Below are positions 7,937 to 25,517 of a DNA stretch of 32,000 nucleotides, piece by piece. Where the stretch lies: assembly GCF_004102945.1 (NCBI RefSeq), contig NZ_CP019384.1:1830001-1862000 (forward strand), given 5' to 3'. The stretch's first letter is position 1. Each line of letters begins with the position of its first letter. The translations under genes and the position numbers were made by a program. The notes below the pieces were generated by a model. That model was not told the DNA's origin, ran no database searches, and saw nothing but the letters and a program-made list of their open reading frames with translations. Origin of the DNA: Candidatus Velamenicoccus archaeovorus (lineage in GTDB: Bacteria > Omnitrophota > Gorgyraeia > Velamenicoccales > Velamenicoccaceae).

Positions 7937-8072
7937 AATTTGGCTGCCCTTCGCACTCTCGGCCAAAAAATCCGCTGAGATTTTTTGGCCTTGCGAAGGA
8001 CGCCAAATTTTTACAGAGTAAAAATTTGGCTGCCCCTATTGGACGAGTTTCGCAACTGGCTGCTCCAGCCAG
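7935..8072. repeat. Nested and alternative hairpins built on a repeated 15-mer AAAATTTGGCTGCCC
   Basis: The exact 15-mer occurs at 7935-7949 and 8021-8035. A long hairpin spans 7935-8011: outer arms 7935-7955 and 7992-8011, inner 11-bp stem 7961-7971 with 7980-7990. A competing perfect 13-bp hairpin pairs 8002-8014 with 8018-8030. A further 7-bp hairpin lies at 8056-8072. Confidence 0.6.
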
Positions 8073-8088
8073 AATATTCTTCTGTGTT

Positions 8089-9102
8089 CTAAGTTATCGA
8101 GCCATCCCAAGAGGCTACCCCAAGAAAATCCATTTGCTTTGGCTCAAAAGTTAGCCCCCTACAACTAACCTTTTTCCCTATGTTATCAGCAACTTGCTGC
8201 GATTGATCAAATACTTTAACTTTAATTGGCCGAATATACTGGCCTTCCTCCAGATGAGTAGTCCTATTGCTTGATATGCCCATCCTAATAGTGAGCTCGG
8301 CGAAGAAGTCTAATTCGGGGAAAGAATAACCTATTATATTAATTTCATCTGCCTTCTTTAATTCTTCGAAGGCTTTAGACCAAAGATCATGAATCCCCTC
8401 AAAAACTTTAAAGTAAGTGGGTGGAACAATGAAGGGAATTGCGTTTGTTTGTAACTCAAACTGTTCGATGGTATCTCTCAATCCTCGTAACGCACAATAA
8501 TATATACGACCCTTGCTAATATCGTCATTTTGCATTTGTTTATAAAAATCGCCTCTCGGCCTTAAATGTGGAGGGAAGAAAAACCAATTAACGGAGCCAT
8601 GCAACTTATAAATCGTTAATTCTCTGCCAGAATATCCTTGTGTATTCCTATACTGCCAACCGATGCCTAGCTCGTCCAACACTGATTCTAAGAGACAGTC
8701 CCAGTTAAATGTAAAAATTAGATCTTGAGCAGGATTCAATCTTGCAACAAATGAATTATAAAAATCCGTTCTCTGCTTATTTTCAACTTTTTCATTAAGA
8801 TAGAAGGCAAGAATCAATAACCAGCCTTTCCTAACAAAGGAATATTGTTCTACCAGTATTCCTTCTTTTAAACCGGCGTCTAACAAACTAATGAATTTTT
8901 CAAAATTAGTCTCTGGTTCTCCAGATGGATAAAGCATCGCATCCACGACGGCATATTCTTTTTCAAATTCTTGAAGGCATGGCAAATTTCTGTCTCTTAA
9001 ATCCTCACAGTAAAATCTTCTTAATTCTGCGAAGAGATTGCTGATAGCAGGCAGACCTGCCGGGACAGAAAATCCAGCTCCTAACATAAATATCCTTTTC
9101 AT
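8089..9102 (-). CDS. Stand-alone SIR2-like (SIR2_2 family) protein
   Basis: 337 aa. Motifs FMLGAGFSVPAGLP, IFTFNWDCLL, YKLHGSVNWFF and IIGYSFPELD match the order of SIR2_2 motifs. RBS GAGGAAAGAG. Confidence 0.85.
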   Translation of the reverse strand: MKRIFMLGAGFSVPAGLPAISNLFAELRRFYCEDLRDRNLPCLQEFEKEYAVVDAMLYPSGEPETNFEKFISLLDAGLKEGILVEQYSFVRKGWLLILAFYLNEKVENKQRTDFYNSFVARLNPAQDLIFTFNWDCLLESVLDELGIGWQYRNTQGYSGRELTIYKLHGSVNWFFFPPHLRPRGDFYKQMQNDDISKGRIYYCALRGLRDTIEQFELQTNAIPFIVPPTYFKVFEGIHDLWSKAFEELKKADEINIIGYSFPELDFFAELTIRMGISSNRTTHLEEGQYIRPIKVKVFDQSQQVADNIGKKVSCRGLTFEPKQMDFLGVASWDGSIT

Positions 9103-9119
9103 CTCTTTCCTCAGAACAA

Positions 9120-9152
9120 AACTCTCTGTAATTTATTAAATCACAGAGAGTT
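9120..9152. promoter_or_regulatory. Inverted repeat AACTCTCTGT-N13-ACAGAGAGTT in divergent intergenic region
   Basis: Perfect 10-bp arms read directly. It lies between the divergent starts at 9102 (-) and 9213 (+). Confidence 0.35.
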
Positions 9153-9212
9153 AGATAAATAAAACTGCCCGAACTGGACGCCAGACGAACTTCACAACTC
9201 CAAGTGATACAT

Positions 9213-9596
9213 ATGGTTGTGAGAATTTACACTCGCAGGAGCAAGAAACAATTAATCCGTTTTGGCGATCCTTTGCCTGAGAAACCTCAGCGGGCAAAGC
9301 GAATTTATCAAAATGTTATCTACGAAGGCCTCAAACTTCAAGCCTTCATTAATAACGGTACTTCCAGAATAACTTGGGCACAAACCCGTAAAGAGTTAAA
9401 AATTTCAGAATCCAAGTTAGCACACTTATTGAAAATAATCAATCAGTTACCGGCCGATTTCGTCGAAAACATGAGATCATGCGACAATCCGGAAATCCTA
9501 AAAATCTTCACCGGTCGAAGACTATTGCAAATCTCTCGCCTGAAAACCGAGAAAGAACGACGAAAAGAAATCGATCGTCTATTACCGAGAATTTAG
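9213..9596 (+). CDS. Hypothetical small protein with possible ParB/KorB-like HTH
   Basis: The ORF-track start at 9204 is GTG; the first ATG is at 9213. The segment ISESKLAHLLKIINQLPADFVENM resembles the HTH region of ParB-type proteins. No clear RBS, so weak support. Confidence 0.45.
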   Translation: MVVRIYTRRSKKQLIRFGDPLPEKPQRAKRIYQNVIYEGLKLQAFINNGTSRITWAQTRKELKISESKLAHLLKIINQLPADFVENMRSCDNPEILKIFTGRRLLQISRLKTEKERRKEIDRLLPRI

Positions 9597-9614
9597 ATAT
9601 CTTTGCCCTTTATA

Positions 9615-10649
9615 TTATTGAATATTATCTATCTCTTTTTCTAAAGCACGGTATTTGTCTCTAACATCTTCGCCTAAGTAGAAATCGAGCATATCCTTCT
9701 TACTTAATTTTCCATCTTTAAGAAACTTGGTTAAATATGCCTGATTGAATTCCATAAGCATCATACTTCTTTCTAACTGTTTCAAAATCTCTTTATTGTT
9801 TGCTATATTCGCCTCTACAAGTCTTTTAACGTTCAAGATATCATTAATGTCCTTGATAATGCGATTGATAATCATAGAAAGAAATTTCGTATCCAATTCC
9901 ACGCCTTTGGCATTCAACGCAATATCCCGAGCCAACATATATGCGATCGCAAGGTTCGAATAGTCACCGGACTGAGAATTGATCACTGCAACGAAACCAA
10001 TACCCTTAATATAACCAACATTTTCATATGCTTTCAGAATGCTATTATCAATTAACGATATATCAAAAACAATTATGCCAACCTTAGAGTCCCTGTTAAC
10101 TTGGGCTTCTAATAACTGACTCCAAGCTGTGTCCATCTTTTTTGTAAAAATATCCTTGGACTCAATATCCCCAAGCCTTATACTCTTATCAAATTTGCAT
10201 TCAATGGCTATCCTTAAACTTGGGTCCCCGTTTAGCTCACAAATAATATCTCCTGTTTTATTCTTTGGCAAAACACCAGTAGCATTTCCAATCAAAACGG
10301 CTTTATCGTTAATTCTTCTTGACGTAAAGTAGTTATTTAAGAATTCCGCTACTTGGTCTTCTGCAACAAACCCCTTTACGGTTGTCTTATAAAATAACTC
10401 CTTTTTCATTTCAAAAATCATTTTCAAACTCTCTAGCTCAGTCCCAAGTTCATTCGTCGTCTTGGCAAGAAAAGCAGAAATCCTATCTTCCATTAATGCT
10501 AATACCCCTATATAAATTGCACGGATGAGCTTTTCGTCCCTCTCATCTACTGGGATATTATTAAAAAAATTAAAAACTACGTTATTCGATAACTCAAAAT
10601 CTTTTATCTCTATCCTGCCTAGCTTCTGATTTAAATTAATAACAGCCAT
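9615..10649 (-). CDS. PD-(D/E)xK nuclease-fold protein, RmuC/DUF2130-like architecture
   Basis: The central motif KGFVAEDQVAEFL...KTGDIICEL...RIAIECKFDKS follows the pattern G-x-x-x-E, D, ExK, and is flanked by helical or coiled-coil regions. The ORF-track start at 10655 is GTG. ATG 10649 has AAGGAG 5 nt upstream and is used here. Confidence 0.6.
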   Translation of the reverse strand: MAVINLNQKLGRIEIKDFELSNNVVFNFFNNIPVDERDEKLIRAIYIGVLALMEDRISAFLAKTTNELGTELESLKMIFEMKKELFYKTTVKGFVAEDQVAEFLNNYFTSRRINDKAVLIGNATGVLPKNKTGDIICELNGDPSLRIAIECKFDKSIRLGDIESKDIFTKKMDTAWSQLLEAQVNRDSKVGIIVFDISLIDNSILKAYENVGYIKGIGFVAVINSQSGDYSNLAIAYMLARDIALNAKGVELDTKFLSMIINRIIKDINDILNVKRLVEANIANNKEILKQLERSMMLMEFNQAYLTKFLKDGKLSKKDMLDFYLGEDVRDKYRALEKEIDNIQ

Positions 10650-10660
10650 CGCCACTCCTT

Positions 10661-10873
10661 CTATCGAATTTTATTCTGCCGATATCGCTTATAAATATTT
10701 TGGTGTGCATACGTCCCATGAGAGTCGGCCGCCATCAAGCCATCATATTCATGTTGAGGAACATCAAAATATTCATAGGCTGAGCCGTCCTTAAATTCAA
10801 TATACAACACTGCTGAGTCGGGATCATATCCTATAGCCGCCAAATTAGAAGAATTAACTGGTATCATTTCCAT
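10661..10873 (-). CDS. KTSC domain-containing protein
   Basis: 70 aa. VNSSNLAAIGYDPDSAVLYIEFKDGSAYEYFDVPQHEYDGLMAADSHGTYAHQNI matches the KTSC (PF13619) pattern. The start is 3 nt after the HerA stop. Confidence 0.8.
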   Translation of the reverse strand: MEMIPVNSSNLAAIGYDPDSAVLYIEFKDGSAYEYFDVPQHEYDGLMAADSHGTYAHQNIYKRYRQNKIR

Positions 10874-10876
10874 TTT

Positions 10877-12667
10877 TTACCCCTTTTTCAGATGTTTTTG
10901 TTCTCTCCAAGCCTTAACAATATTCTTGTAGTGCTCTGCTTTTACAGTAAACTTCTTGCGCCAACCTTCAACCAGCTTAGGATCATTGCTGCTCGGCCGA
11001 GGTTCCACAAGTTCAATTCTAACCCTCGAAGGGATATTTATTGCCTCGCCAACAATTATCGCTTCACCAATCCTTAAGGATGGCAAAAGCTCCATTAAAC
11101 TATTCATATTATTAGGTGAGGCAGATTGAACGTTATTTTTGTCACTACTATTGGTAAGCCTCAATGCAACGAATGTGCCTACTTGAGCAAGAATTGTCTC
11201 CGAAATTTCTGACGGCCTTTGAGTTACAACCATTGCTCCGACGCCAAATTTCCGCCCTTCCTTATATATCTTTTCAACAGAGCGCCTTGCATACCCATAT
11301 ATATGCGAACTGCTTTCATTCTTTGGTAAATAAGAATGCGCCTCTTCGAAAACCATCAATATTGCTCGGTTCCTTCCGGTATAATCTTCATGTCTACCCC
11401 AATACATTGAATCAAAAATTAACCGTGTTATTAAACCTACCGTTATATCGATTAACTCGAAAGGCACCTCATTTAAATCCAATATGGTAAGACGCTGGGC
11501 ATGATCAATCCAGTCACGGAGAAGTTGATCTATGTCATGCTTGCTTGTAGTATCATAAAAATCTCCGGGATTAAACATAAAGTCAAAGCGCGTATCTTTC
11601 AGACGAGAGAGTATTTTCATTTCGTAAGCATACATCGTCTGTTCTTTAGATTTAAAAGGCGCGACGGCTCCCATAGAATAAGGTTTAAATCTTGCCGGTA
11701 TTAATTTTTGTGGATCTCCCTCTGCCTCCAACTCTTCTTTATCTTTTGTCTGCTTGTCGGCTGTAGCCTCAGAATAGGTTGCATTAATTTCCCTGTTAAA
11801 GTCATACCACATCTTCCTTATGTCGAATGGGATGGGTGAATCCGCGGTAACAAAATCCACATTGACATTACCCGCCTTCAACCTGGATGCATTATCTTTC
11901 TTTAGTTTAACAACTGCTTCGCGCAATTTCTTGTCCTCTGGTTTTTCGCTACCGGCTTGTCTTCCAACCAAGAAAAACGAAAGCTCATCAAAAGACATTG
12001 CCCAAAAAGGAATATACAAAGGACTTTGGTCGTCATTTATCTTGAATACCTTAGCCTCTGTTCCAAATGCAGAAGAATACTCTCCATGAGTATCAACCAA
12101 AACCACCCTCGAACCTGGGTAGTCATTCAAAATGCGCTTTAGAATATGTGCAGTCGTATTTGATTTACCACTACCGGTAGAGCCGAGAATAGCGCTGTGT
12201 CGCAAGATAAAATTATGCAGATCCAAATAAACAGGAAGATTCTCAGAAGAAGAGTGTTTCCCTATCTCAATCGTCCCTGCGCTATGATCACCGTAAATAA
12301 TTCTAAGGTCATCTTCTGTTACAATATGGACTTCATCATTAATCGTGGGATATGTCCCTACTCCCTTTTTAAATACATCTCCTCCCAATTGTTCACCAAT
12401 AAGCTGAACCTGCAAAAATCTGGAACCATAATCCGGCTCGTACTTGTTGACTTCAATTAAGGAAGGGGTATTGCTGACAGAAGAAACTATCCCAAACAAC
12501 GTCAGTCCCCCTACCGGAATTTTTACAAATGTCCCAATTTGTCCAAGCTTATATAGCCGCCCATTAATAATCGGCGTTGCTGAAGGGATATCTCGAGAAA
12601 TCTCAACTTCAATGCTTGAACTATTAACATTAATTACTTTGCCTAAATATGTAATTTCATTTATCAT
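10877..12667 (-). CDS. herA: HerA-like (DUF87/FtsK-HerA superfamily) ATPase of SIR2-HerA systems
   Basis: 596 aa. N-terminal HAS-barrel-like region (GKVINVNSSSIEVEI...GQIGTFVKIP...GIV). Walker A ILGSTGSGKSNT, Walker B ILMVFEEAHSYLP. Its start overlaps the SIR2 stop by 11 nt. Confidence 0.9.
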   Translation of the reverse strand: MINEITYLGKVINVNSSSIEVEISRDIPSATPIINGRLYKLGQIGTFVKIPVGGLTLFGIVSSVSNTPSLIEVNKYEPDYGSRFLQVQLIGEQLGGDVFKKGVGTYPTINDEVHIVTEDDLRIIYGDHSAGTIEIGKHSSSENLPVYLDLHNFILRHSAILGSTGSGKSNTTAHILKRILNDYPGSRVVLVDTHGEYSSAFGTEAKVFKINDDQSPLYIPFWAMSFDELSFFLVGRQAGSEKPEDKKLREAVVKLKKDNASRLKAGNVNVDFVTADSPIPFDIRKMWYDFNREINATYSEATADKQTKDKEELEAEGDPQKLIPARFKPYSMGAVAPFKSKEQTMYAYEMKILSRLKDTRFDFMFNPGDFYDTTSKHDIDQLLRDWIDHAQRLTILDLNEVPFELIDITVGLITRLIFDSMYWGRHEDYTGRNRAILMVFEEAHSYLPKNESSSHIYGYARRSVEKIYKEGRKFGVGAMVVTQRPSEISETILAQVGTFVALRLTNSSDKNNVQSASPNNMNSLMELLPSLRIGEAIIVGEAINIPSRVRIELVEPRPSSNDPKLVEGWRKKFTVKAEHYKNIVKAWREQKHLKKG

Positions 12668-13859
12668 TTGATTCCTTCACAACCTCTTCGATTTTTTCCT
12701 GCTTACCAGATATCTCCATTAAAAACCTGACCATTTCTTTGAAATCTCCTATTTTTAGACGATTGCCGCCAACATCCCAACAAGCATCTAACAAATGGTC
12801 TGTCTTATTTTTCTTCCACTCGCCCAAGAAACCTCTAATTATAGCTTTTCGGGGTCCGATTGCTGTAAAGTTCAGAAAAGTCCCGAGTTCGCTTATTTTC
12901 GCCAAATCGTCGTCGGAAAAGAAAAATCCTATAATATGAAGTCTGTTATTTTGTTTCAAACTATCAATAATTACGGCATTTATATGCTCATCAGAAAAAG
13001 AATATCCGTTTATAACAAAAATTCCCTCTCCATCCTGTAGAAAAGTTCTAAGCCGATCAAAATAAGCGATGAAAGGTTGTTTTCTAGAAGTCTCGTACTT
13101 TTCTTTTGACGGATAAATTACCAACTCATTTTCATTGTTAGATTTTTTCGATTCAATCCCAAGTCGAACAACTTTGTTGGGTTTCCCTTTAGCATTTTTC
13201 TTCCAGAACCAATTGATCGAGCCATGTAGCTTCCAAAATCTTATCCAAGAAACCGGTGGAATATCGTATGTATTCTTGCTCTCAAGACTCTCCGGAAAAA
13301 AGAACGGCTGATAAGCACCGACAAATCCATCAAAATAGGGGATATGCAAACTCTCTAGCGCCTTCTCAACAACCAGGTCATAATTGGTAGTAAAAACTTC
13401 TTTGGCATAATCTCTACTCAACCAATTTAACCATGTCACAAATTTCTTTGTATGCGATAAATCAACACTTCTCTCCTCTTCGCCTATAATCTCGTAAATA
13501 CGATTGCATATTTCCATATCCAAATCGAGAGCATCTTTTCCGCTTACCTTCTCAAAATTTCTGTCCGGGCTATCATTTGCAAGCTGTCGAATCAAACGTA
13601 CTTGATCAAGAATCTGCTCAATCGTTAATGGATCGTCACCTTCTTTTACGCTTAATCCAGTTTCGACATTTTTTAAGATATTCTTTTGTTTCTCTCCCAG
13701 CTTCTCTCGAACTTTTTTTGTTAGCCCAGCGAGATCGGATATATTTAATGCCTTCGAAGTCCCGGCCCCCAACAAGAATCCAATTCTTTTAACATAAGAA
13801 AGCTGATTTCTTACTTCGCAAATTTCTTTTTGTGGGTCATAAAATATTTCATTTGCCAT
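12657..13859 (-). CDS. SIR2-like NADase-family protein (SIR2-HerA system partner)
   Basis: 400 aa. Motifs GFLLGAGTSKA, VFTTNYDLVVEKAL, WKLHGSINWFW and INGYSFSDEHIN. RBS GAGGTGA. Confidence 0.9.
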   Translation of the reverse strand: MANEIFYDPQKEICEVRNQLSYVKRIGFLLGAGTSKALNISDLAGLTKKVREKLGEKQKNILKNVETGLSVKEGDDPLTIEQILDQVRLIRQLANDSPDRNFEKVSGKDALDLDMEICNRIYEIIGEEERSVDLSHTKKFVTWLNWLSRDYAKEVFTTNYDLVVEKALESLHIPYFDGFVGAYQPFFFPESLESKNTYDIPPVSWIRFWKLHGSINWFWKKNAKGKPNKVVRLGIESKKSNNENELVIYPSKEKYETSRKQPFIAYFDRLRTFLQDGEGIFVINGYSFSDEHINAVIIDSLKQNNRLHIIGFFFSDDDLAKISELGTFLNFTAIGPRKAIIRGFLGEWKKNKTDHLLDACWDVGGNRLKIGDFKEMVRFLMEISGKQEKIEEVVKESNDK

Positions 13860-13886
13860 ATTTCACCTCTTGTAGCCCCCCCAGAA

Positions 13887-14876
13887 CTATTTAAAAATCA
13901 AGGCCGATTGCTTGCTTCTTATTTCTACCTCTTTTTCGCTTAACAAGGCACCATAGAAACCCTGTATTTCTGAATCACTTTTATTATTTTCAAGAAACCT
14001 GAAAGACGATGCTGCCAAATAATCTTTTTCTTTCTCAAAAGCCAGCCATTTTCTGCCATGCCCTTCTGCAGCTTCTCCGGTGGTATTTGAACCCGCGAAT
14101 ATATCCAACACAACATCACCCGGATCGGTAAGAAACTTAATAAAAAATTCTGGCAACTGCCTTGGAAAACGAGCTGGATGTCCTTGTATATTCGCTATCT
14201 TACAAAACCGCAAATATTTTGAATTGCTTTCCGAATTCGATATCTGCAAAAGATTGGGAGGAATGGCGCCACCATTGCCATTCCCGTTGCCAAACTCTTT
14301 AGAAATATCATGTCCGGATGGCCTCTTCTTTGGCGTATAGAATTTCTCGCTATTCTTCAATAATTGTTTCATCCTCTCCGAGTAAGGAGTTAATACCTTC
14401 TTGATATCAGCCTTGGGATATTCTGACTTCGAAAACCACCATATTGTATTAACAGCGTCTTTCGCCCTTATCTTTCGCTTATTAACCCATTCAATCGGGG
14501 ACGGCAATTTCGAAGGATTAAACCAAAAAAACTCCTCTGCCAAAAAGAACCCAAGATCCTCGCAGAATTTAATCAATATTTTGTAGTTATAAAGCGACCG
14601 GGTCGGCCTTCCTTTTTCGTAAGCACCCCCAAGATCAAGAACAAAACTGCCATCATTCTTTATTACTCTCTTGATTTTTTTTGCAAAAACAGCTAACCAA
14701 TCGACATAATCTTCTTGCGATTTATTACCGTATTCTTTTTGCCTCTGCAACGCAAACGGCGGCGATGTTATGACAAGGTTGACAGAATTATCAGAAAGAC
14801 AATCAAGCAATTCTAAAGAATCGCCAACATAAGCCTTCCCATATTGCGTTGTGTACAATGGAGATGGTAATTTCAT
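13887..14876 (-). CDS. Beta-class N4-cytosine/N6-adenine DNA methyltransferase (SPPF type, M.PvuII-like)
   Basis: 329 aa. Catalytic motif IV VITSPPFAL precedes the SAM motif I VLDIFAGSNTTGEAA, which is the beta-class order. SPPF is typical of m4C enzymes. Long stretches (FWFNPSKLPSPIEWVNKRKIR, PPNLLQISNSESNS, HPARFP) match my recollection of the M.PvuII family; this needs REBASE confirmation. Confidence 0.88.
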   Translation of the reverse strand: MKLPSPLYTTQYGKAYVGDSLELLDCLSDNSVNLVITSPPFALQRQKEYGNKSQEDYVDWLAVFAKKIKRVIKNDGSFVLDLGGAYEKGRPTRSLYNYKILIKFCEDLGFFLAEEFFWFNPSKLPSPIEWVNKRKIRAKDAVNTIWWFSKSEYPKADIKKVLTPYSERMKQLLKNSEKFYTPKKRPSGHDISKEFGNGNGNGGAIPPNLLQISNSESNSKYLRFCKIANIQGHPARFPRQLPEFFIKFLTDPGDVVLDIFAGSNTTGEAAEGHGRKWLAFEKEKDYLAASSFRFLENNKSDSEIQGFYGALLSEKEVEIRSKQSALIFK

Positions 14877-14897
14877 CGACCCAGCAAACTCCTTTTA

Positions 14898-16364
14898 TTA
14901 ATAAATATCCAAATCGCTCACCCAACTCGAAAGAATTTTCCACAGCACTGTTACAGCAAAATACACCTCTTTATCTTTCTGCTTCAATTCTTCTATTTGC
15001 GTAATAAACTTCTCCTGCTTTTGGGAACCAATTATCCAAGCAACCCACTTCCGTGAATTTTCATCGTTCATTACAGAAGATAAGTCTTTGACGGAGAAGT
15101 TACCGCTTTTGCTCAATGCCCAAGAAATACCCGCTCGCACATCTTCGCTGCCCTTTGGGAATAATCCAATAATTTCCTTGCTATAAATCTCTGCCAACCT
15201 GAAAAGCGACCGAGCAGATTCAGATCTAACATCGATGTTTATATCGTCAAATACCGTAACTAACGCTTGTAGCGCTTCTTTATTCTTGAGTTCCCCCAAC
15301 GCCCAAGCTGCTCCCGCTCTAATTTCTGGATGCTGCTCTTTATCTAATAAAACACGGATGAGCAATTCAGCAGAATAACTACTATTAATTTCCCCTAGAA
15401 TAATAACACCTTCCAGCCTATTTTCTAAATAAGTATCCCTCAAAACCTCTTTAAAGAAATCTATGCTTTCTTTCTGCCCAAGCTTCAAAATACTTGATGC
15501 CGCCTCCAAACGAATATAAATATGATCTTTGGAGTCTCCCATTTTCTCCAATAAAGATTTAATCACTTGCAGATCTTTGGGGAAATATGAAAGTGCTTTA
15601 GCCGCTGCATATCTTTCACTTAATGAAGTACTTTTTAACATTTTCTGATAATCTGAAGCCCCTCTCCCGCCTAAGCACTTAAAATCTTGAATAACAGGAA
15701 CAACAGATGCGATGATCTGATCTTGTTTAACAACGCCATTAACAGTTACAATAGGTTTTATAGTGATATTTTTCTTTTTTAAGCTCAGACTTATTGTTCT
15801 GTTATCTTCAGTACGTTTAAACTTTATTCTGTTATTTATCTCTACCACTGTACCATCGCAACTAGCAACAGCACATGGCCATGAAATCCTTGTTTCAAAT
15901 CCTTCTTCAACACCTTTCGGTCTCTCGGTAATAACTTTTTTGTCACGAAAAACCTTCCTCAAATAATTGACTTGAATATATTGCACAAGATCCGAAGCCT
16001 TCCAATCTGTAGGATCTTCTCCTGCTTTTTTACAGCTTACCAAGGCGATAAAATCTTCATCATTCAAACCAAAATCCCACCCGCGTTCCGGGCTAGCTAT
16101 TGAATGTGACATGGTTATTTGCAACTTGGTTTTTGCTCTTGATTCCACCCGTTTTCCACATTTCACACAAAGGATATCAGGAACACGAACACGCTTAATT
16201 TTAATCCCCTTCCAAATCTTAAAACTCATTGACCCACGTTCCAACTCTATAGGGGCATGGGTTTGCCGTTTTAAGTCATCAAATACTTTCTTAGTCCCTG
16301 TTGCTCCAATAGAAATTTTTTCTAGAAAGCTTACATCGGTTTTGAATGACTGTCTATTTGCCAT
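14898..16364 (-). CDS. Putative PD-(D/E)xK-like N-terminal domain fused to C-terminal HEAT (PBS-lyase type) repeats
   Basis: 488 aa. The N-terminus has ELERG...RVPDILCVKCGKRVESRAKTK, an Hjc/restriction-endonuclease-like E, PD, E-x-(R/K) pattern. The C-terminal ~230 aa carries repeated HEAT-like units (EIRAGAAWALGELKNKEALQALVTVFDD, IDVRSESARSLFRL, DVRAGISWALSKSG). Confidence 0.6.
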   Translation of the reverse strand: MANRQSFKTDVSFLEKISIGATGTKKVFDDLKRQTHAPIELERGSMSFKIWKGIKIKRVRVPDILCVKCGKRVESRAKTKLQITMSHSIASPERGWDFGLNDEDFIALVSCKKAGEDPTDWKASDLVQYIQVNYLRKVFRDKKVITERPKGVEEGFETRISWPCAVASCDGTVVEINNRIKFKRTEDNRTISLSLKKKNITIKPIVTVNGVVKQDQIIASVVPVIQDFKCLGGRGASDYQKMLKSTSLSERYAAAKALSYFPKDLQVIKSLLEKMGDSKDHIYIRLEAASSILKLGQKESIDFFKEVLRDTYLENRLEGVIILGEINSSYSAELLIRVLLDKEQHPEIRAGAAWALGELKNKEALQALVTVFDDINIDVRSESARSLFRLAEIYSKEIIGLFPKGSEDVRAGISWALSKSGNFSVKDLSSVMNDENSRKWVAWIIGSQKQEKFITQIEELKQKDKEVYFAVTVLWKILSSWVSDLDIY

Positions 16365-16380
16365 AGAAACCCTTCATGTT

Positions 16381-16563
16381 TTAATTTTTATTTCTCCATT
16401 GTTTCCGATCCTTTTCAATCAGGTCCCGGATAATTGATATAATGGACGCGCTTTTATTTTGTTTTTGTAACTCAAGAGCTTTTTCTTTCAGGAAGAAATA
16501 CTGCTCCTCGCTAATTTCAATAGTCGTCTTTTTCATGTTGGTTTTGCCTATTTGCCGGTTCAT
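16381..16563 (-). CDS. Small ribbon-helix-helix (CopG/Arc-like) protein, putative
   Basis: 60 aa. KKTTIEISEEQYFFLKEKALE...ASIISIIRDLIEK fits a beta-strand plus two helices. An alternative start is M10 (16536). It ends 16 nt before the HEAT-fusion gene. Confidence 0.45.
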   Translation of the reverse strand: MNRQIGKTNMKKTTIEISEEQYFFLKEKALELQKQNKSASIISIIRDLIEKDRKQWRNKN

Positions 16564-16566
16564 CTA

Positions 16567-16617
16567 TTTTGTGCTCCAATCGCTATATCCCTTTATTTAT
16601 AGCAATATAGCACAAAA
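16567..16617. promoter_or_regulatory. Imperfect inverted repeat upstream of the RHH gene
   Basis: TTTTGTGC (16567-16574) and GCTATAT (16582-16588) pair with the contiguous ATATAGCACAAAA (16605-16617). The left arm carries a 7-nt insertion. Confidence 0.3.
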
Positions 16618-16651
16618 AGGCTGGATTGAGAAGGAAAAACTAAAGCAACCG

Positions 16652-17401
16652 CTAAGATAGTTTTTTGGCAATATCTCTAATGCCGGTGTCCGGATGCATA
16701 AGAAGTTTTTCTCTATCGTAGTCGATAAAATCAGGGTGGAGGGATATGCGGTATTGCTTTGATCCGTTATTCTCAATAAATTTCTGACCGTCTTTGTCCA
16801 GCAAGCTACCTTCTAAAGCCGTTCGGAGGTTACTATAAATCTGAAATTTTTCAACATCAGCAATTATCGTGTCGGAACCCAATCTATGCCTATGAACCCA
16901 GCCGTCCCTTTTCTTTTTCAATTCCAACACCAAACGGAGGAATAACTTGAATACCGAATCGCCGAGTTTTATTTTATGATTATTTACCTCGACTGCATTG
17001 CTTCGTCTCATCGGTATAGTACCCGGGATATAAACCTTGTCGTAGCATTTGTACTCAAAATTTTTGTAATCCTTATTCTGCTTTTCCGTCAGCTCTCTAA
17101 TGACAAGATCCGCCCCTATATTCGGCCTCAGCATTCCGGAAATAATCTCGCCGAGTAGTTTGCAAATTTGATTATCAAACGTCTTTCTGTAAATGCTCTC
17201 TTTCTTCATATGTTTTTTTAGGTCGAGGGCATCGCTGCGTGTTATCGGTGTAAAAACAACAAGGATGCTATTATCTTTATAAATATACTTTAAGGTAGAT
17301 AGCTTTAACAACCTGCCGTTGCCGATATTAAGAACGAAAACCAAGCCCGCTCTTCTACCGTTCCCTTTCTTGTTCGCTATATAAAAATATCCCTTTTTCA
17401 T
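16652..17401 (-). CDS. Hypothetical protein with possible C-terminal OmpR/PhoB-type winged-helix domain
   Basis: 249 aa, RBS AAGGATAGGGG. The C-terminal segment IKLGDSVFKLFLRLVLELKKKRDGWVHRHRL...IYSNLRTALEG...GSKQYRISL follows the Trans_reg_C pattern. The N-terminal ~130 aa is unrecognised. Confidence 0.45.
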   Translation of the reverse strand: MKKGYFYIANKKGNGRRAGLVFVLNIGNGRLLKLSTLKYIYKDNSILVVFTPITRSDALDLKKHMKKESIYRKTFDNQICKLLGEIISGMLRPNIGADLVIRELTEKQNKDYKNFEYKCYDKVYIPGTIPMRRSNAVEVNNHKIKLGDSVFKLFLRLVLELKKKRDGWVHRHRLGSDTIIADVEKFQIYSNLRTALEGSLLDKDGQKFIENNGSKQYRISLHPDFIDYDREKLLMHPDTGIRDIAKKLS

Positions 17402-17423
17402 CCCCTATCCTTGTCCTGCGGGT

Positions 17424-18629
17424 TTATTTAGACTCTTCCATGCCCGGAGGTCTTTTCCTCCATGGATAGCCTCCCGATGCCTCCTTAAATCCAAGATCAT
17501 AAAGCTCTCGCATTTCCGCGGGATCAAAAAGCTCTTTTGCTTTTGACACATGCGTTGCAGGAATATAGGCAAGATTAAAATCTCCCTTTCCATATTTAGT
17601 AAAAACGTACAACTGGTAAAGATCGCCTATGCCCTGAGCATTTATTATCGTGTCAACCGCACGCTCAGCAATTGCTGAAAGCCTATCCGGAACCTCTTTA
17701 TAGATAGGATCAACATAGCCGTTTCTTATTACATAGATTGCGTATTTAAGCTTAGATGCATCCATCCCCTTCTCTTTAAGAGCCTTGTCGAACCCCTGCA
17801 AAACATCGTGCAGAAAAAATACCTGCCTAGTTATGCCGCCGTCGACGTGCATCTCGTCGTACGTCTTATCATTGGCTTCTACATTCAGATATACCGGCGG
17901 GAAAGCAATCGGGATAGATGCCGACGCCAATATGACCTTGCGAAACAGCTTTAAAGCTTTATCATCTCCTATAGACGCGATTTTTCCCATATCCCAGATA
18001 ACCAGCCGCTGCGCATCTAAATTAGTAGTTCCGATGTAAAGCCTGCACCCTTTGGCATACTCAGCAGCTATTTGCTTCATCAATTCTGCATCAAAGTATT
18101 TCTCAATCAGACGCTCAAGCGGGCGGGTATTTGCAAAAGAATTAATAAACGGGATTCGTATTCGGACGATATCTCTCGTAGAATATTTTGTATAAAACTC
18201 TTTTAACTTGTAATCATATTCATTCCCGAGAAAGGCGATTGGCGCAATTATCGCTCCCGTGCTAATCCCTGTTACTACTTTAAAAACCGGACGCACCCCC
18301 GATTCACTCCAACCACTTAATAAACCGGCCCCGTATGCGCCCTCAGCAGCTCCTCCTGAAATAGCCAGCGCATATAAAGTCTGGCTATTATTAAAGTCAA
18401 AAAAAGAACTCTGTTCTTTTTTCTCTTGCTCTAATAATTTGATAAAATCTTCTTTGAAAGAATCACTAGGCATACCGCTGAATGCCCTGACATCCTGCAT
18501 GCCGAAAACCCGCGCGCTGCTTAATAAATCCGGAGGGACGGCATGCCGAACGCTTGCGCAACCGGAAATAAAAAAAGCGATCATGCTGAACAAGCATAAC
18601 CGCCTTCTTGTTCCTACCCACTTATACAT
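17424..18629 (-). CDS. Patatin-like phospholipase, predicted lipoprotein
   Basis: 401 aa. Lipobox FFISGC; oxyanion region ISGGAAEGAYGAG; GxSxG as GISTGA; catalytic Asp in HVDGGI. Confidence 0.85.
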   Translation of the reverse strand: MYKWVGTRRRLCLFSMIAFFISGCASVRHAVPPDLLSSARVFGMQDVRAFSGMPSDSFKEDFIKLLEQEKKEQSSFFDFNNSQTLYALAISGGAAEGAYGAGLLSGWSESGVRPVFKVVTGISTGAIIAPIAFLGNEYDYKLKEFYTKYSTRDIVRIRIPFINSFANTRPLERLIEKYFDAELMKQIAAEYAKGCRLYIGTTNLDAQRLVIWDMGKIASIGDDKALKLFRKVILASASIPIAFPPVYLNVEANDKTYDEMHVDGGITRQVFFLHDVLQGFDKALKEKGMDASKLKYAIYVIRNGYVDPIYKEVPDRLSAIAERAVDTIINAQGIGDLYQLYVFTKYGKGDFNLAYIPATHVSKAKELFDPAEMRELYDLGFKEASGGYPWRKRPPGMEESK

Positions 18630-19089
18630 GAGAACTCCCCATAGATTCTAAAGAATCAACGAGTATCGAGATTCCTCTTTCCATTATTTTTTTATCCTTT
18701 TCTTTTAGACCGTTAACGAGCGTCTCAAGAAACCGTTTTCTATGCTTTTCTAATTTTGCCAAATAATATCTCCCTTTGTCGGTAAGCGCGACAGTAACCT
18801 TCCTACGATCTTTCTCAGTCCGATGACGAACAACCAATTTGCGTTCAACAAGTCGATCGACAAGATTGGTCGCGAATGCACCGCTAACAGAGAGTTCTTT
18901 TTTTATTTTGTTCATCTCGCTCGGCTTGCCGCTACTTAAGAAATTTAATATTTGAAATTCTAAAAAACTTATCTTCTGAGATAAAAAATAACGTTTAGTA
19001 TGGACATGTAAACTCCTCATAAGCCTCTGAAGCAACTCGGAAAGCTTTAAATAATACGGCCTTTCAAACACAAAACTCACCTTTTTCAA
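18622..19089 (-). CDS. MarR family transcriptional regulator
   Basis: Winged-HTH core LEFQILNFLSSGKPSEMNKIKKELSVSGAFATNLVDRLVERKLVVRHRTEKDRRKVTVALTDKGR. The ORF-track start is TTG, so the true start is uncertain. It overlaps both neighbouring genes. Confidence 0.85.
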   Translation of the reverse strand: MKKVSFVFERPYYLKLSELLQRLMRSLHVHTKRYFLSQKISFLEFQILNFLSSGKPSEMNKIKKELSVSGAFATNLVDRLVERKLVVRHRTEKDRRKVTVALTDKGRYYLAKLEKHRKRFLETLVNGLKEKDKKIMERGISILVDSLESMGSSHV

Positions 19090-19630
19090 TAAGAGTTATG
19101 CCTACTGCAACCACCTCGGAATCGTATAGTGATCCGCTGTTTTGTTGAATTTCCTGCAAAGCATCCTCAATATTTAATGTTGGCCGATACACCTGTGGAG
19201 AAACCATCGTATCTACCACATCGGCAACTGAAATTATTTTTGTAACAGGATTAATCTCCTCGGCATGTAAGCCGAAAGGATATCCTGAACCATTCAATCT
19301 TTCATGGTGCTGAAGCGCAACCTCCGCTGCCATAGATTCGGACTTTATGTCTTTTAAAAGAGAATAGCCCAACTCCGGATGCTTTTTCATGATCTCAAAT
19401 TCATCATTATTCAGAGGGCCGCACTTATTAAGGATCTCCACCGGTATTTGAATCTTTCCAATATCATGAACGACTGCTGCAAAATGAATATGCTTAATAT
19501 CTGCGTCGGGGTGGCCAATTTTTTGAGCAATAGCACACGCAAGCCGAGCAACCCGACTTCCATGAGCATAAACCGCCTCATGTTCGCTTAACATTTTTAC
19601 GATTGAAAACAATGTGTCAAAATTTTTCAT
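19064..19630 (-). CDS. Stand-alone HD-GYP domain protein (putative c-di-GMP phosphodiesterase)
   Basis: 188 aa. Motifs HGSRVA, VVHDIGK and HHERLNGSGYPFGL. Confidence 0.85.
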   Translation of the reverse strand: MKNFDTLFSIVKMLSEHEAVYAHGSRVARLACAIAQKIGHPDADIKHIHFAAVVHDIGKIQIPVEILNKCGPLNNDEFEIMKKHPELGYSLLKDIKSESMAAEVALQHHERLNGSGYPFGLHAEEINPVTKIISVADVVDTMVSPQVYRPTLNIEDALQEIQQNSGSLYDSEVVAVGITLIEKGEFCV

Positions 19631-19634
19631 GCAT

Positions 19635-22600
19635 TTAATGTTTTATAAACCGCCTCTCAAAACGCTCCAGATACCAGAAGACTACCGGCACTAGAATAAA
19701 TGTAAAGATGATCGAAGCGAGCAATCCGCCGATCATCACCGCGCCCATAGACTGTTTAATTTTGCTTAAACTCCACAACTGCGGTAGAACGCCTAAAATA
19801 ATGGCAAACGAAGTCATAATAATCGCGCGGAATTTAGCTGAAGCGCCCTGCCAAAGCGCATCCTTAATCGCCAATCCCTCTTTCATCTTAACTAAGGTCT
19901 GATCCAGAAGCAGGATCGCGTTATTCACTACCATACCTACCAACATAACCATACCCATCATCGAAGCCACATTCATGCTCTGGTTAAGATAAAACAGCCC
20001 CAAGACCATCCCGGCGACGGAAGCAAGCACTGTAGTCATGACCGCCAAAGGATAAGCAATTAGTGAATTCATGATCGCGCACAACAGCATAAAGGTTAGG
20101 ATGATCGCCAAAAGAAACGCCCTGCCCAATTCAACATTTGTTTCTTCCATATACTCCGAATATCCCGAGTATTTATAGTTATAGCCGGAGGGAAAGTTAA
20201 TTGCCTTGAACTGTTTATCCAACTTCTTGCTGACGATAACCATGGAGCTCTTGCCCAGATACCCGTCAATTCGTATGATCCTGTTGCGATCGCGACGCCA
20301 GATGGTGGGAACAGCCTTATCGATTTTCAATTCTCCTAATTCATTGATAGGGATTAACCCTTTGCGCGAAAGAATTGATATTTCTTTAATATCGTCGAAA
20401 TTCCGAGCATAAACATCATCCATCTCCACGTTGACTTTATATTCTTCACCTTTTTCTTTGTAAATATTGGAATCCTCTCCGTAAATGGAGTATCGCATTA
20501 CTGCGCCCACGCTAGCTGCGTTGAGTCCGAACTCATTAAGTTTTTCCTCATTAGGAACCAAGCTCATCTGCTTCTTAGGGCTTTTATATGAAAGAACTAC
20601 GCTCTGAAAATCGCCGCTTTTATTCATGATATCTTTCATCTGTCTGGCCAGATCAACCATAACCGTGTAATCCGTGCCGTAAAGGTCTATAGCTACATCA
20701 CCTTCAGACATCGAGCTTATACCTTGCCGTACGCAATACGCTTCTACATCCGGCATCTTTGAGATGAAAACGATCAGATCGTCAATAATCTGCATATCGC
20801 TGCGTTTACGCTCGGTTGAAGGGATTAAATCCAGGGTAACCTTGGCGTTCTCTACTCCATTATTCCCAATATTAGACAAGTAAGCTCGTTTCTCTGGTAT
20901 CGTATCCAAGAAAGCTTCAATATGCTTGACCGCCTCTTCTGTACGTTCGACGGTTGAGCCTTGAGGAAGAGAAAGATTGATAATGACCTTATCTTCGTCG
21001 GACTTAGGCTGAAAATCATTTTCCACATAAGAGAAAAGTAAAAATGAACCGATCAGCGCCAAACAACAAAAAGCAATAGTCGAGCGCGGAAAACGGAACA
21101 TAAGCTCAAATATATGCTTATACTGCTTTTTAAGAAATTCCGTTAGTTTGTCCACGGAAATCGGAATCATTCTTATTCTAGAAATAACCATTTGCATCAG
21201 TCCGGGCCGGAAAGGTTTCTCAGTTTTTTGAGGTTGAAGCATTGCCGCGCACAACATTGGAGTCAATGAGAATGAGGCCAGCAATGAAAAGCAAGTAGCA
21301 TAAACCACTGTCAGACCGAATGATTTCATCATCAGCCCAACCATTCCACCCATCATAGCAATCGGCATGAATACAACAAGATTGGTGCCGGTAGAAGCAA
21401 TGACGGGAATTAAAACTTCCTTAGTCCCGTCTATCGCTGCCTTTTCCGGATTGTCGTGGCGGCTCAAATGTACCATCACGTTCTCTAAAATTACTAAAGC
21501 ATTGGATATAAGTGTTCCGATTACCGTAGCGATGGCAAGAAGGGTCATCATGTTAATGGAAAAACCCGACATCCACATAGGAAATAGCGTAGAGATAATC
21601 GAGGTAGGAATAATGATTGCAGAAATAAACGACATATCCCAACGCCCCAGAAACAGCAACAATAGGATTATGGTTAAAACGATTCCTATAAATATGTTCC
21701 GTTCGGTATCCAATGTTTCATTCGCGATAAAAGTAGTGGTGTCGGTAGCAATTTCCAGATGCATTCCCTGAGGTAGACTTTTCTGGAATTCCGCTAACCT
21801 CTTACGCATTTGATGAGAAATGAATACAGCGTTACCGTCGGAAGCTTTATTGACGGAAAGGCCAACTACAGGTTTACCGTTATAGCGAGCGACTGTAGAG
21901 ATTTTTTTATAGCTATCCTCGACTGCTGCAATATCCTTCAGGTGAAATTCACCGCCGTCGGATGAAACTAGAAGGGTATCGGCAATCTCTTTTACGCTTG
22001 TGAATTCTCCGGTAAAGCGCACGCTAAGAGCATCGTATCCCTTTTCAATATCCCCCGCAGGCACATTTTTATTGCGGGCCATGAGCGCCGCAATCACTTC
22101 GTTGATACTAATATAATGCTGCTTCATAAGCATGGGGTCCAAACGGACATTAATCTGCCGTTTCTCCCCTCCATATACGTCGACCTTGGCTACGCCACGT
22201 ATGGATGAAAATTTGGTCTTTAAGGTTTTATCCGCATATTCGTATACTTCGCGCAGATCACCGGAATCACTGCTTAAAACCATGTCCAACACCGGCTCAA
22301 TTAAAGGATCATATTTCTCTATTACCGGTTTTTCTATTGCATCAGGCAGGTCGTTAAGAATGGCCTCAACCTTGTCCTTAACTTCTATAGATTTGACGTT
22401 GACGTCTGCGGAAAGTAAGAATTCTACGAATATGTATCCGAAACTATCGTAAGACTGGCTTTTTATCTTCTTAATCTCGGAAATCTCAGAAATAGCGTCT
22501 TCAATCTTTTTGACTACCAGCGTCTCCACCTCCAAAGGATTCGCCCCCGGATAAGTCACGGAAACCGTCACAATCGGAAAATCAATCTTTGGGGTCTTCT

Positions 22601-22697
22601 CAATCATCAGATTGGAATAGCTGAAAAACCCCAAGACCACGAATACCAACACAAACATGACCGTGGTAATCTTATGTTTAACAAAAAATTCTATCAT
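19635..22697 (-). CDS. RND efflux transporter permease (AcrB/AcrD/AcrF family)
   Basis: 1020 aa. It has the 12-TM layout with two large periplasmic loops and family-typical N- and C-termini. ATGA overlap with the adaptor gene. Confidence 0.95.
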   Translation of the reverse strand: MIEFFVKHKITTVMFVLVFVVLGFFSYSNLMIEKTPKIDFPIVTVSVTYPGANPLEVETLVVKKIEDAISEISEIKKIKSQSYDSFGYIFVEFLLSADVNVKSIEVKDKVEAILNDLPDAIEKPVIEKYDPLIEPVLDMVLSSDSGDLREVYEYADKTLKTKFSSIRGVAKVDVYGGEKRQINVRLDPMLMKQHYISINEVIAALMARNKNVPAGDIEKGYDALSVRFTGEFTSVKEIADTLLVSSDGGEFHLKDIAAVEDSYKKISTVARYNGKPVVGLSVNKASDGNAVFISHQMRKRLAEFQKSLPQGMHLEIATDTTTFIANETLDTERNIFIGIVLTIILLLLFLGRWDMSFISAIIIPTSIISTLFPMWMSGFSINMMTLLAIATVIGTLISNALVILENVMVHLSRHDNPEKAAIDGTKEVLIPVIASTGTNLVVFMPIAMMGGMVGLMMKSFGLTVVYATCFSLLASFSLTPMLCAAMLQPQKTEKPFRPGLMQMVISRIRMIPISVDKLTEFLKKQYKHIFELMFRFPRSTIAFCCLALIGSFLLFSYVENDFQPKSDEDKVIINLSLPQGSTVERTEEAVKHIEAFLDTIPEKRAYLSNIGNNGVENAKVTLDLIPSTERKRSDMQIIDDLIVFISKMPDVEAYCVRQGISSMSEGDVAIDLYGTDYTVMVDLARQMKDIMNKSGDFQSVVLSYKSPKKQMSLVPNEEKLNEFGLNAASVGAVMRYSIYGEDSNIYKEKGEEYKVNVEMDDVYARNFDDIKEISILSRKGLIPINELGELKIDKAVPTIWRRDRNRIIRIDGYLGKSSMVIVSKKLDKQFKAINFPSGYNYKYSGYSEYMEETNVELGRAFLLAIILTFMLLCAIMNSLIAYPLAVMTTVLASVAGMVLGLFYLNQSMNVASMMGMVMLVGMVVNNAILLLDQTLVKMKEGLAIKDALWQGASAKFRAIIMTSFAIILGVLPQLWSLSKIKQSMGAVMIGGLLASIIFTFILVPVVFWYLERFERRFIKH

Positions 22698-23386
22698 TGA
22701 ATTTGTTCCTTTTTATCTGTTTCTCCGGCGTCTACCACCAGTAGCCGGTCATTATCCTCAAGCATACTCTGTCCGCTGAATATTACTTTATCGCCGGATT
22801 GCAATCCTTCGGAAATTATCGCGCCGTAGCCGTTGCGTAATCGAATAACCACTTTGCGTTTTTTGGCAAGACCGTTCTCATCCTTCCAAATAAAATATTC
22901 ATCTCCGGCAATATCCAGCACTTCATTGGGAACGGCTAATACATTATGTAGCGTCGAAGTATGAGCGCAAACCACAAACGCAACGCTCGGATCCCGAGAC
23001 TTATCAAACTCTACCTCTACCGGGAACATACCAGCGTCCATGTCTAGTTCCGCACCTATGCTTTTTAATCGAGCGCTAACAACGAATCTATCCTCCGGAT
23101 CGTATATCTCTTGTCCTTCCTGAAGCGCATTTTTAACTTCACCTGTAACAAACCCACGGGCAACCCGCCCGTCAACGATCCTGACCGTAAACTGAGCGTA
23201 AACGGGGACATCTCCGGCTTTAATCACCCGAACCTCAACCGGCTTTCCCGCCTTCTTCCATTCCCCATAGAAACTGACAATTGTCTTACCGCGTGCTGCC
23301 TTGACCGCGTGAATACGCAGTGGAACGGAAGCTAAACTAAGGATAATGATTATTAAATATATTGTTTTTCGCTTAAAGTTTTTCAT
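22694..23386 (-). CDS. Short RND periplasmic adaptor (MFP-like) subunit
   Basis: 230 aa with an N-terminal signal or anchor. Beta-rich C-terminal region (VLAVPNEVL...YFIWKDENG...KRKVVIRLRNGYGAIISEGLQSGDKVI). Positioned between the TolC and RND genes. Confidence 0.7.
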   Translation of the reverse strand: MKNFKRKTIYLIIIILSLASVPLRIHAVKAARGKTIVSFYGEWKKAGKPVEVRVIKAGDVPVYAQFTVRIVDGRVARGFVTGEVKNALQEGQEIYDPEDRFVVSARLKSIGAELDMDAGMFPVEVEFDKSRDPSVAFVVCAHTSTLHNVLAVPNEVLDIAGDEYFIWKDENGLAKKRKVVIRLRNGYGAIISEGLQSGDKVIFSGQSMLEDNDRLLVVDAGETDKKEQIQ

Positions 23387-25488: not shown

Positions 25489-25517
25489 TTATCCCCCTCA
25501 CGAACACTGTTTAATTA

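Follow-up and report, generated by a model that had tools for sequence, protein, structure and literature searches.

The stretch of DNA analysed, referred to as the window, is 32,000 nucleotides (nt) of Candidatus Velamenicoccus archaeovorus, and all coordinates below are window positions. Its minus strand carries a run of four genes encoding a SIR2 protein, the ATPase HerA, a small KTSC-domain protein (gene K) and a protein of 344 amino acids (aa), here called X, which is predicted to be a PD-(D/E)xK nuclease. These genes and the features within them are as follows.

12657..13859, minus strand: gene for a SIR2 family NADase, 400 aa, the first gene of the core system.
10877..12667, minus strand: gene for the HerA ATPase/translocase, 596 aa, without a C-terminal KTSC domain.
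10661..10873, minus strand: gene K, encoding a KTSC protein of 70 aa, a detached C-terminal HerA domain.
10655..10660, minus strand: AAGGAG ribosome-binding site (RBS) of X, directly after the K stop codon, read from the sequence.
9615..10649, minus strand: X, 344 aa, predicted PD-(D/E)xK nuclease with long helices on either side of its core; this gene closes the operon.
10194..10361, minus strand: putative catalytic constellation of X, E99...G135-D136...E152-x-K154, numbered from the GTG at 10655.

The four genes are translationally coupled. The SIR2 and HerA genes overlap by 11 nt, and K starts 3 nt after the HerA stop codon (TAA-AAA-ATG), as had been read in the original prediction, which was made from the letters of the window. 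The same prediction placed X 5 nt after the K stop with an AAGGAG RBS. The RBS is there but the distance needed correction; the junction reads TAG-AAGGAG-TGGCG-ATG, with the ATG of X at 10649, 11 nt past the K stop, and it is the RBS that lies 5 nt upstream of this ATG. An alternative start in the list of open reading frames (ORFs), a GTG at 10655 giving 346 aa, does lie 5 nt after the K stop and falls within the RBS. The NCBI annotation has X at 344 aa, the identical protein being hypothetical protein BU251_08735 of Candidatus Velamenicoccus archaeovorus. The gene 18 nt downstream of X is convergent.

The SIR2 protein matched Pfam SIR2_2 (3e-16) and PADLOC SIR2 PDLC04093 (1.9e-117), and its closest solved relative was the Paenibacillus SIR2, 8w9l_A (1e-48). 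HerA matched Pfam DUF87 (3e-38) and HerA_C (5.8e-11) and PADLOC HerA (8.1e-159), and it aligned to residues 10-604 of the HerA of Paenibacillus sp. 453MF, 8wiv_A (3.4e-129). A Walker A motif, GSTGSGKS, was seen in the translation of HerA and the candidate catalytic motifs TTNYD and KLHGS in that of SIR2. The K product matched Pfam PF13619 (7.5e-25; 86.9 bits against a cut-off of 25) and, in the PDB, the free KTSC protein 7x8c_A (2e-13) and 4rgi_A (2.8e-10). It also matched residues 633-695 of the 696-aa Paenibacillus HerA (8wiv_A, 2.8e-12). At the level of sequence, SIR2, HerA and KTSC are thereby identified as the validated SIR2-HerA anti-phage system of Paenibacillus sp. 453MF (Gao_Her_SIR). 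This system was reportedly described by Gao et al. in 2020. Since the NCBIfam equivalog cut-offs were missed (303.6 bits against 850), the window system is a divergent SIR2-HerA member.

Compared with the Paenibacillus system, SIR2 and HerA are close homologues with the same gene order and overlap. The differences are that HerA of the window is split into a 596-aa protein and the 70-aa KTSC protein, and that there is a coupled fourth gene, X, absent from the validated 3.8-kb construct. Fused HerA-KTSC proteins were found in four of the loci described below (L044, L061, L078 and L122), and that of L061 is a full-length homologue of 8wiv (3.3e-219). Across 30 loci the K distances track the HerA distances (Spearman 0.69) nearly as closely as the SIR2 distances do (0.77). 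Given the residues matched in 8wiv, the HerA-KTSC fusions and this co-evolution with HerA, K is a detached C-terminal domain of HerA and not the new adaptor for which it had been taken. In the published work residues 576-696 of Paenibacillus HerA are a 'C-terminal arm domain' which helps to stabilise the split-spiral hexamer, and KTSC is never named (PMC11472057). The defence construct of that study (nt 196,518-200,314, 3.8 kb) contains SIR2 and HerA alone and protects E. coli. A search of the protein collection with a 300-aa stretch of 8WIV, made for the native 453MF locus, returned only fragments of at most 60% identity. The SIR2-HerA core is known, and the split KTSC is a minor variant recognisable from the published structures.

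X itself gave no match in Pfam, NCBIfam, PADLOC or the PDB sequences, and sequence and profile searches against the PDB returned coiled-coil noise only. An exhaustive search of 1.84 billion representative proteins yielded just 273 clusters at 50% identity (E<=1e-3), and by these searches X is placed in a compact family that has neither a Pfam model nor a solved structure. An alignment of 58 sequences (A1), reaching down to 21% identity, showed E99, G135, D136, E152, K154 and L235 to be invariant and K133, Q180, N187, R188 and D198 to be nearly so. The stretch GDIICEL...IAIECKFDKS, singled out earlier as a nuclease motif, is present and holds the invariant D136, E152 and K154.

An AlphaFold2 (AF2) model of X was obtained with a mean predicted local distance difference test (pLDDT) score of 86.8. 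It runs from N-terminal beta-hairpins through a 57-residue helix and an alpha-beta-beta-beta-alpha-beta core to ~110 residues of C-terminal helices. The core elements are helix 95-112, strands 118-121, 137-140 and 148-154, helix 177-187 and strand 192-198. Helix 95-112 of the model carries E99, D136 stands where strand 137-140 begins, and strand 148-154 contains both E152 and K154, so that the predicted core carries the invariant residues, in agreement with the nuclease active site expected of X. The top of the Foldseek list against the PDB was weak and consisted entirely of PD-(D/E)xK nucleases (Bax1, EcoT38I, NucS, CinB, SfsA, EcoRV, SgrAI and McrC). Among viral structure models (BFVD) the best matches were giant-virus proteins, one of them annotated as an Mrr-domain protein (1.1e-4). 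The giant-virus proteins A0A5J6VIU6 and E3T5I3 (Megaviridae, Cafeteria roenbergensis virus) are of similar length and match the whole X model with E values of 4e-5 to 1e-4, which suggests, as far as models can, that the architecture of helices, nuclease and helices also exists in eukaryotic giant viruses.

The sole recurrent Pfam signal in the family was PDDEXK_15 (PF24608), seen for 12 of the 58 members at E<=1 and always below the gathering score, the best being 23.5 bits (5.9e-5) against 27. X of the window matched neither PDDEXK_15 nor Mrr_cat. The relationship to PDDEXK_15 is probably a distant one and not membership. What X shares with PDDEXK_15 ('phage putative PDDEXK endonuclease') and the Mrr-type nucleases is this recurrent sub-threshold signal, together with best structural matches to giant-virus and phage proteins of the Mrr-domain or restriction-endonuclease type; it differs in being absent from isolated phage genomes.

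The original prediction had called X RmuC/DUF2130-like, and this found no support from hidden Markov models (HMMs). RmuC (PF02646) was matched neither by X and two homologues at E<=10 nor by any of the 58 members at E<=1. DUF2130 (PF09903) gave no Pfam match, and hhalign of A1 against the DUF2130 protein of locus L140 gave E=0.37. X and DUF2130/RmuC do share a plan of long helices and a PD-(D/E)xK core with a GD...ExK motif, but X is without the N-terminal zinc ribbon, its helices lie on both sides of the core and there was no HMM match in X or its 57 relatives. The bona fide DUF2130 protein of L140 (L140:4043-5260; 2.4e-88; zinc ribbon, coiled coil and PD-ExK) starts 10 nt after SIR2-HerA-K, in the slot of X, and the likeness is one of analogy. 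We know of no published defence role for DUF2130. Neither DUF4297 nor NurA was found as an identity for X in PADLOC or Pfam. Given the invariant E99, D136, E152 and K154, the canonical core, the PD-(D/E)xK fold matches and the PDDEXK_15 signal, X is predicted to be a PD-(D/E)xK nuclease of a previously unrecognised family.

The surroundings of X were examined in an X-anchored scan using one genome per species, which gave 80 loci (designated by L numbers); the neighbourhood tallies are counted out of 81. The ORFs of the neighbourhoods were clustered into families (f numbers) and the recurrent families were annotated. The loci came mostly from Bacteroidota and also from Omnitrophota, Ignavibacteriota, Balneolaceae, a spirochaete and Limnohabitans. 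X was the last gene of a co-directional string in all 81 loci. The gene directly upstream was distributed as follows.

KTSC: 28 loci.
OLD-family nuclease: 17 loci.
344-aa membrane/coiled-coil protein following an SMC/LmuB-like ATPase: 8 loci.
AAA_13, equivalent to PDC-S06: 7 loci.
PDC-S46: 6 loci.
Another SMC-like ATPase: 3 loci.
PIN_8-KTSC fusion: 2 loci.
HerA-KTSC fusion: 2 loci.
Other: 8 loci.

This upstream gene was co-directional with X in 80/81 loci, and the gap between them had a median of 2 nt and was at most 12 nt in 72/81. Downstream of X the median gap was 30 nt, and 19 of 77 downstream genes lay on the opposite strand. The order SIR2-HerA-K-X was present in ~35/80 genome loci from several phyla and in metagenomes, as well as on pPZ02, a mobilizable plasmid of Paracoccus zhejiangensis, and on a single IMG/VR contig. 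This recurrence indicates that the arrangement is not due to chance and bears out the earlier claim of a KTSC protein and a PD-(D/E)xK-type protein coupled directly behind SIR2-HerA. X is not specific to HerA, however, since it also stands behind OLD, AAA_13, PDC-S46, SMC-like ATPases and PIN-KTSC. The earlier question whether homologues of X are always next to KTSC or HerA thus received a divided answer, in that a KTSC-like gene is upstream in 65/71 loci while HerA is only one partner among several; X occurs without HerA, but the context was always one of defence. A single-protein scan of viral contigs with X gave 2 loci, and none of 50,697 isolated phage genomes held X. A phage origin was discarded on this result, and X is a host-side gene.

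In some loci the genes continue beyond X. Three genes resembling Wadjet JetA-JetB-JetC by eye follow 15-18 nt after X in L046, L050 and L061, and the three-gene set f78-f79-f80 follows with a 4-nt overlap in L059 and L070, indicating that the arrays run on into further systems. Two relatives of X with 30-47% identity, in L083 and L089, lie beside PTP-family phosphatases and an ADP-ribosylglycohydrolase or PPDK_N protein, a different and repeatedly seen context which may be another system.

Two small genes without a Pfam model recur ahead of the ATPases. One, k4, encodes 72 aa beginning MERYRNS..GSGLNSYIN, and its profile matched nothing in the PDB. The other, w6, encodes a WYL-like protein of 95 aa whose profile gave only a weak PDB match, to the BrxR WYL domain 7qfz (E ~0.1). 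When K and k4 were considered together, free or fused, one of them lay within 7 kb upstream of X in 65 of 71 loci (92%) and within 7 kb downstream in 0 of 61 (Fisher 4e-31). KTSC was also found as a C-terminal fusion on Schlafen/AlbA_2-HATPase_c_4 proteins (f7; L008, L041, L048, L057 and L058) and on PIN_8 proteins (f58; L034 and L054). With HerA, a KTSC tail is therefore present on three unrelated upstream enzymes: HerA, AlbA_2/HATPase_c_4 and PIN_8. In L138, k4 sits between K and X and there is no ATPase.

A K-anchored metagenome scan with the KTSC alignment added 80 further loci. X stood behind HerA-K in 20 of 37 loci with at least 1.3 kb of downstream sequence and in 12 of 19 with at least 4.5 kb (~54-63%), and where X was missing the operon mostly ended at K. 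When K had no HerA upstream, X was seldom present (2/13). From these counts X is rarely without a KTSC-like gene, but KTSC and SIR2-HerA-KTSC can do without X.

Taken over all loci, X looks like part of a portable module, found almost always with KTSC or a KTSC-like protein behind interchangeable nucleoside triphosphatase (NTPase) defence genes, namely SIR2-HerA, OLD, AAA_13/PDC-S06, PDC-S46, SMC/LmuB-like ATPases and PIN-KTSC. The explanation preferred here, tentatively and with a chance put somewhat below even, is that SIR2-HerA-KTSC is the known system that depletes nicotinamide adenine dinucleotide (NAD+), and that X is a facultative second effector, a DNase linked via KTSC that cuts the DNA engaged by the NTPase. 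As the final gene of the operon, X would share the transcript and be translated by coupling to the gene before it. The KTSC domain or protein would connect X to the NTPase, and X would cut the DNA on which the NTPase motor is engaged, by analogy with HerA-NurA, so adding DNA degradation to the NAD+ depletion by SIR2. We infer in this a nuclease activity of X, a contact between KTSC and X and a contribution of X to defence. A functional link between X and KTSC or the NTPase is favoured by the position of the KTSC-like gene, by the KTSC fusions on three unrelated enzymes and by the strict terminal coupling. A wider version, possible but doubtful, would unite X and the small KTSC-type proteins (K, k4) in one portable nuclease module, with KTSC as a universal docking tag. 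This tag, present as a free protein or as a C-terminal fusion on HerA, Schlafen/AlbA-HATPase or PIN proteins, would allow a single nuclease to be joined to six or more unrelated NTPases acting as sensors or motors.

The evolution of X was compared with that of its partners. In 30 SIR2-HerA-K-X loci the mean pairwise identity was 46% for SIR2, 54% for HerA, 57% for K and 81% for X. The median proportion of synonymous differences (pS) in X was 0.81, which is saturated, and that of non-synonymous differences (pN) was 0.13, against 0.35-0.45 for the neighbours. X is under much stronger purifying selection than its partners. A recent spread was considered as a cause of the conservation and was ruled out by the saturated synonymous sites.

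Several observations weigh against a facultative effector linked through KTSC. X does not co-evolve with its partners, its distances correlating poorly with those of HerA (Spearman 0.38) and K (0.20) when the K-HerA and SIR2-HerA values are 0.69-0.77. The mean identity of X is 81.6% for upstream partners of the same kind and of different kinds alike, which argues against a partner-specific interface. Seventeen of the 37 SIR2-HerA-K loci are without X, and the 3.8-kb SIR2-HerA(KTSC) construct protects E. coli in its absence (PMC11472057). Distant relatives of X (~30-47% identity) occur without KTSC or an upstream NTPase and some apparently alone; that of L083 is behind an NERD/UvrD helicase, a PTP phosphatase and an ADP-ribosylglycohydrolase, that of L086 is ahead of DUF3293 and an SNF2 helicase, and those of L091-093 are coupled to a gene of 131 aa. 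K and k4 are only weakly similar (hhalign 1.3e-4 over the full length), and in the Foldseek search of the PDB the X model matched no solved nuclease significantly. No locus yielded a genuine fusion of K with X. Two candidates for such a fusion were rejected: the 415-aa ORF of L081 is an out-of-frame extension, and P0172, in which KTSC precedes the X N-terminus, is an artefact of a frameshift-ridden long-read contig where HerA and JetD are also fragmented.

These observations lend themselves to another reading, that X is an autonomous nuclease (restriction-like, Mrr-like or acting by abortive infection), carried as a promoter-less 3' cassette on defence operons and functionally unconnected with HerA and KTSC. 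Four results keep such an independent hitch-hiking nuclease at a probability well short of even but far from negligible: X does not co-evolve with its partners, it is optional, the prototype works with two genes, and distant relatives free of KTSC stand alone or head other operons. The best structural match, an Mrr-domain protein, also fits this reading. However, a KTSC-like gene precedes X in 92% of loci and follows it in none, and the gene directly before X is nearly always KTSC or an NTPase from a limited set. A coupling of a few nt is kept across at least nine upstream families, which is hard to obtain by random landing, and the occurrence of KTSC as a fused tail on three unrelated upstream enzymes suggests that this domain is important for the gene that follows.

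The adjacency of K and X with a 2-nt gap in 28 loci resembles the order of a toxin-antitoxin pair, and X is a conserved terminal gene common to many potentially toxic NTPase systems. X could accordingly be a regulator or safeguard, an antitoxin-like brake limiting self-damage by the NTPase, or K and X could themselves be a toxin-antitoxin pair. This is improbable, as the invariant catalytic residues indicate an enzyme, K co-evolves with HerA and not with X (X-K correlation 0.20), cassettes of k4 and an NTPase insert between K and X, and HerA and KTSC form a single protein in the prototype as well as in several loci. Nor is the pairing obligate, with many SIR2-HerA-K loci lacking X and X present in 2 of 13 cases where K is without HerA.

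Closely related loci showed that X and the genes before it can have separate histories. L010 and L007 are 94.6% identical in DNA across SIR2-HerA-K, a similarity that breaks off precisely at the stop codon of K, and 88.8% identical across X; in another pair of loci the values are 90.8% and 75%, again with a history of X differing from that of SIR2-HerA-K. The unequal divergence within a pair of loci points to a mosaic history. Relative to L010, L007 carries a 2.0-kb insertion of k4 and OLD exactly between the K stop and the X start, an indel that fits recombination between the shared K and X genes. The loci compared for this indel, L007 and L010 (also L070 and L060), are otherwise 89-95% identical in DNA. 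In Flavobacterium, a slot between a histidine-kinase/response-regulator pair and a lipoprotein/EEP-nuclease cluster is filled by K or k4 with OLD, AAA_13, f14-f15 or f32, and X is last in every variant. Indels precise to the gene boundary directly 5' of X, the shuffling of partners relative to X and its different DNA history might be taken to mean that X is itself a factor for DNA recombination or cassette exchange, either RmuC-like or capturing defence cassettes between K and X 'arms'. This is rated as very improbable: X has no homology to RmuC, transposases or integrases, the gaps of -1 to +8 nt leave no intergenic room for recombination sites, the synonymous sites are saturated so that the DNA has not been kept similar, and the pattern is explained by homologous recombination of the ordinary kind, acting on the K and X genes that the loci share.

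The preferred reading, X as a second effector placed behind an NTPase, has several precedents. HerA-NurA acts in archaeal DNA end resection. In it and in DUF4297-HerA (Gao_Her_DUF), a hexameric HerA translocase is combined with a nuclease of the same operon, which is the logic proposed for HerA and X, although X is neither NurA nor DUF4297 and also serves NTPases other than HerA. McrBC, Gabija GajA/B, Septu PtuA/B and PARIS AriA/B likewise have a P-loop NTPase and a nuclease in one operon, with specific, co-evolving partners. X differs from these pairs in being constant (~81% identity) while the NTPase family changes completely, and several of the NTPase systems linked to X already have an effector of their own (the OLD TOPRIM domain, SIR2). 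In combining one conserved protein with many unrelated partners, X is like the PanA 'Panacea' antitoxin. A 'mutual exclusivity' has been stated in the literature (PMC9503650), in contrast to which X coexists with SIR2 and does not replace it.

Full-text literature searches for KTSC found no defence study. The only relevant passage is one sentence of Iyer et al. 2022 (PMC9503650), citing 'unpublished observations', and survey papers mention PDC-S06 and PDC-S46 solely under these PADLOC candidate names. The X family, its strong conservation, its terminal place behind at least six NTPase defence modules and its reliance on KTSC-like genes are undescribed in the searchable literature. The new architecture that had been foreseen is therefore new so far as description goes, that one sentence excepted, but X is optional for SIR2-HerA-KTSC (20/37) and the prototype defends without it. 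It has apparently gone unnoticed, despite the heavy study of SIR2-HerA, that the 'arm' end of HerA is a KTSC domain which in many genomes is a separate gene. The same apparently holds for the unnamed, strongly conserved nuclease behind about half of the window-like loci, and for its place at the end of OLD, AAA_13 (PDC-S06), PDC-S46 and SMC-like operons with a KTSC-like protein almost always upstream.

If X is functionally tied to these systems, KTSC would acquire a role, X would stand for a new effector family, PADLOC and DefenseFinder would need to extend several system definitions and the mechanism of SIR2-HerA, at present NAD+ depletion only, would need to be revisited. If KTSC is in addition a docking tag, this would be the first function for the domain, and the 'single-gene' Old, PDC-S06 and PDC-S46 and the 'two-gene' SIR2-HerA would be parts of larger machines in Bacteroidota and other phyla. 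Should X prove independent, it would still be a new and widespread candidate defence gene with an unusually strong sequence constraint.

The operon of the window lies in a genomic island, and two further genes precede SIR2.

13887-14876, minus strand: N6/N4 DNA methyltransferase (Pfam N6_N4_Mtase 1.2e-42; PADLOC MTase_II 2.3e-158).
14898-16364, minus strand: 488-aa protein with HEAT repeats in its C-terminal half (Pfam HEAT_2 1.7e-21).
8000..26000, ~18 kb: low-GC genomic island carrying the operon, 37-43% GC against 51-55% in the flanks.

The methyltransferase and HEAT genes are co-directional with the operon, with gaps of 21 nt (HEAT to methyltransferase) and 27 nt (methyltransferase to SIR2), and they are possibly on the same transcript as SIR2-HerA-KTSC-X. 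Their adjacency to X is not conserved in other loci. A type II-like methyltransferase in the same orientation 3 kb upstream, taken with the restriction-endonuclease-like fold of X, might suggest that X is the restriction endonuclease partner of this methyltransferase, with SIR2-HerA inserted between them. This is scarcely credible. In the 80 other loci X is usually not beside a methyltransferase, its conserved neighbours being the KTSC-like genes and NTPases, and the RE19-MT11 pairs, where found, are complete by themselves. The nearest relative locus, L001, has other upstream genes which do not cluster with the methyltransferase of the window. The N-terminal ~230 aa of the HEAT protein contain the stretch '...VPDILCV...VESRAK...' and have no Pfam match, and the N-terminal 233 aa gave no match in the PDB; the protein may serve the methylase as an atypical partner in restriction or sensing.

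Neither the Rfam scan nor the tRNA scan of the window returned a match, and no tRNA, integrase or Rfam element was found at the island edges. A scan for promoters and terminators did not rise above the expectation from shuffled sequence and was uninformative. Also within the island are a second SIR2-like gene, a patatin gene, an AcrB/OEP/TetR efflux operon and MarR and HD genes. The divergent second SIR2-like gene (337 aa, minus strand, in the region 8089-9596) gave weak SIR2_2 and Aga_SIR2 matches. Divergent from it on the plus strand is a 130-aa ORF (9204-9596) that looks like a helix-turn-helix protein by eye, and between the two lies a perfect palindrome with a 15-bp stem (9120-9152), which could be an operator or terminator. 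The ~400 bp at the GC break (7626-8021), between a DUF134 gene and the SIR2-like gene, contain only overlapping doubtful ORFs, have no Rfam match and may be the island boundary. The patatin-like phospholipase (401 aa, 2.9e-23) is beside a 249-aa protein without a family (16652-18629, minus strand), and together they could be a further defence or effector pair in the island.

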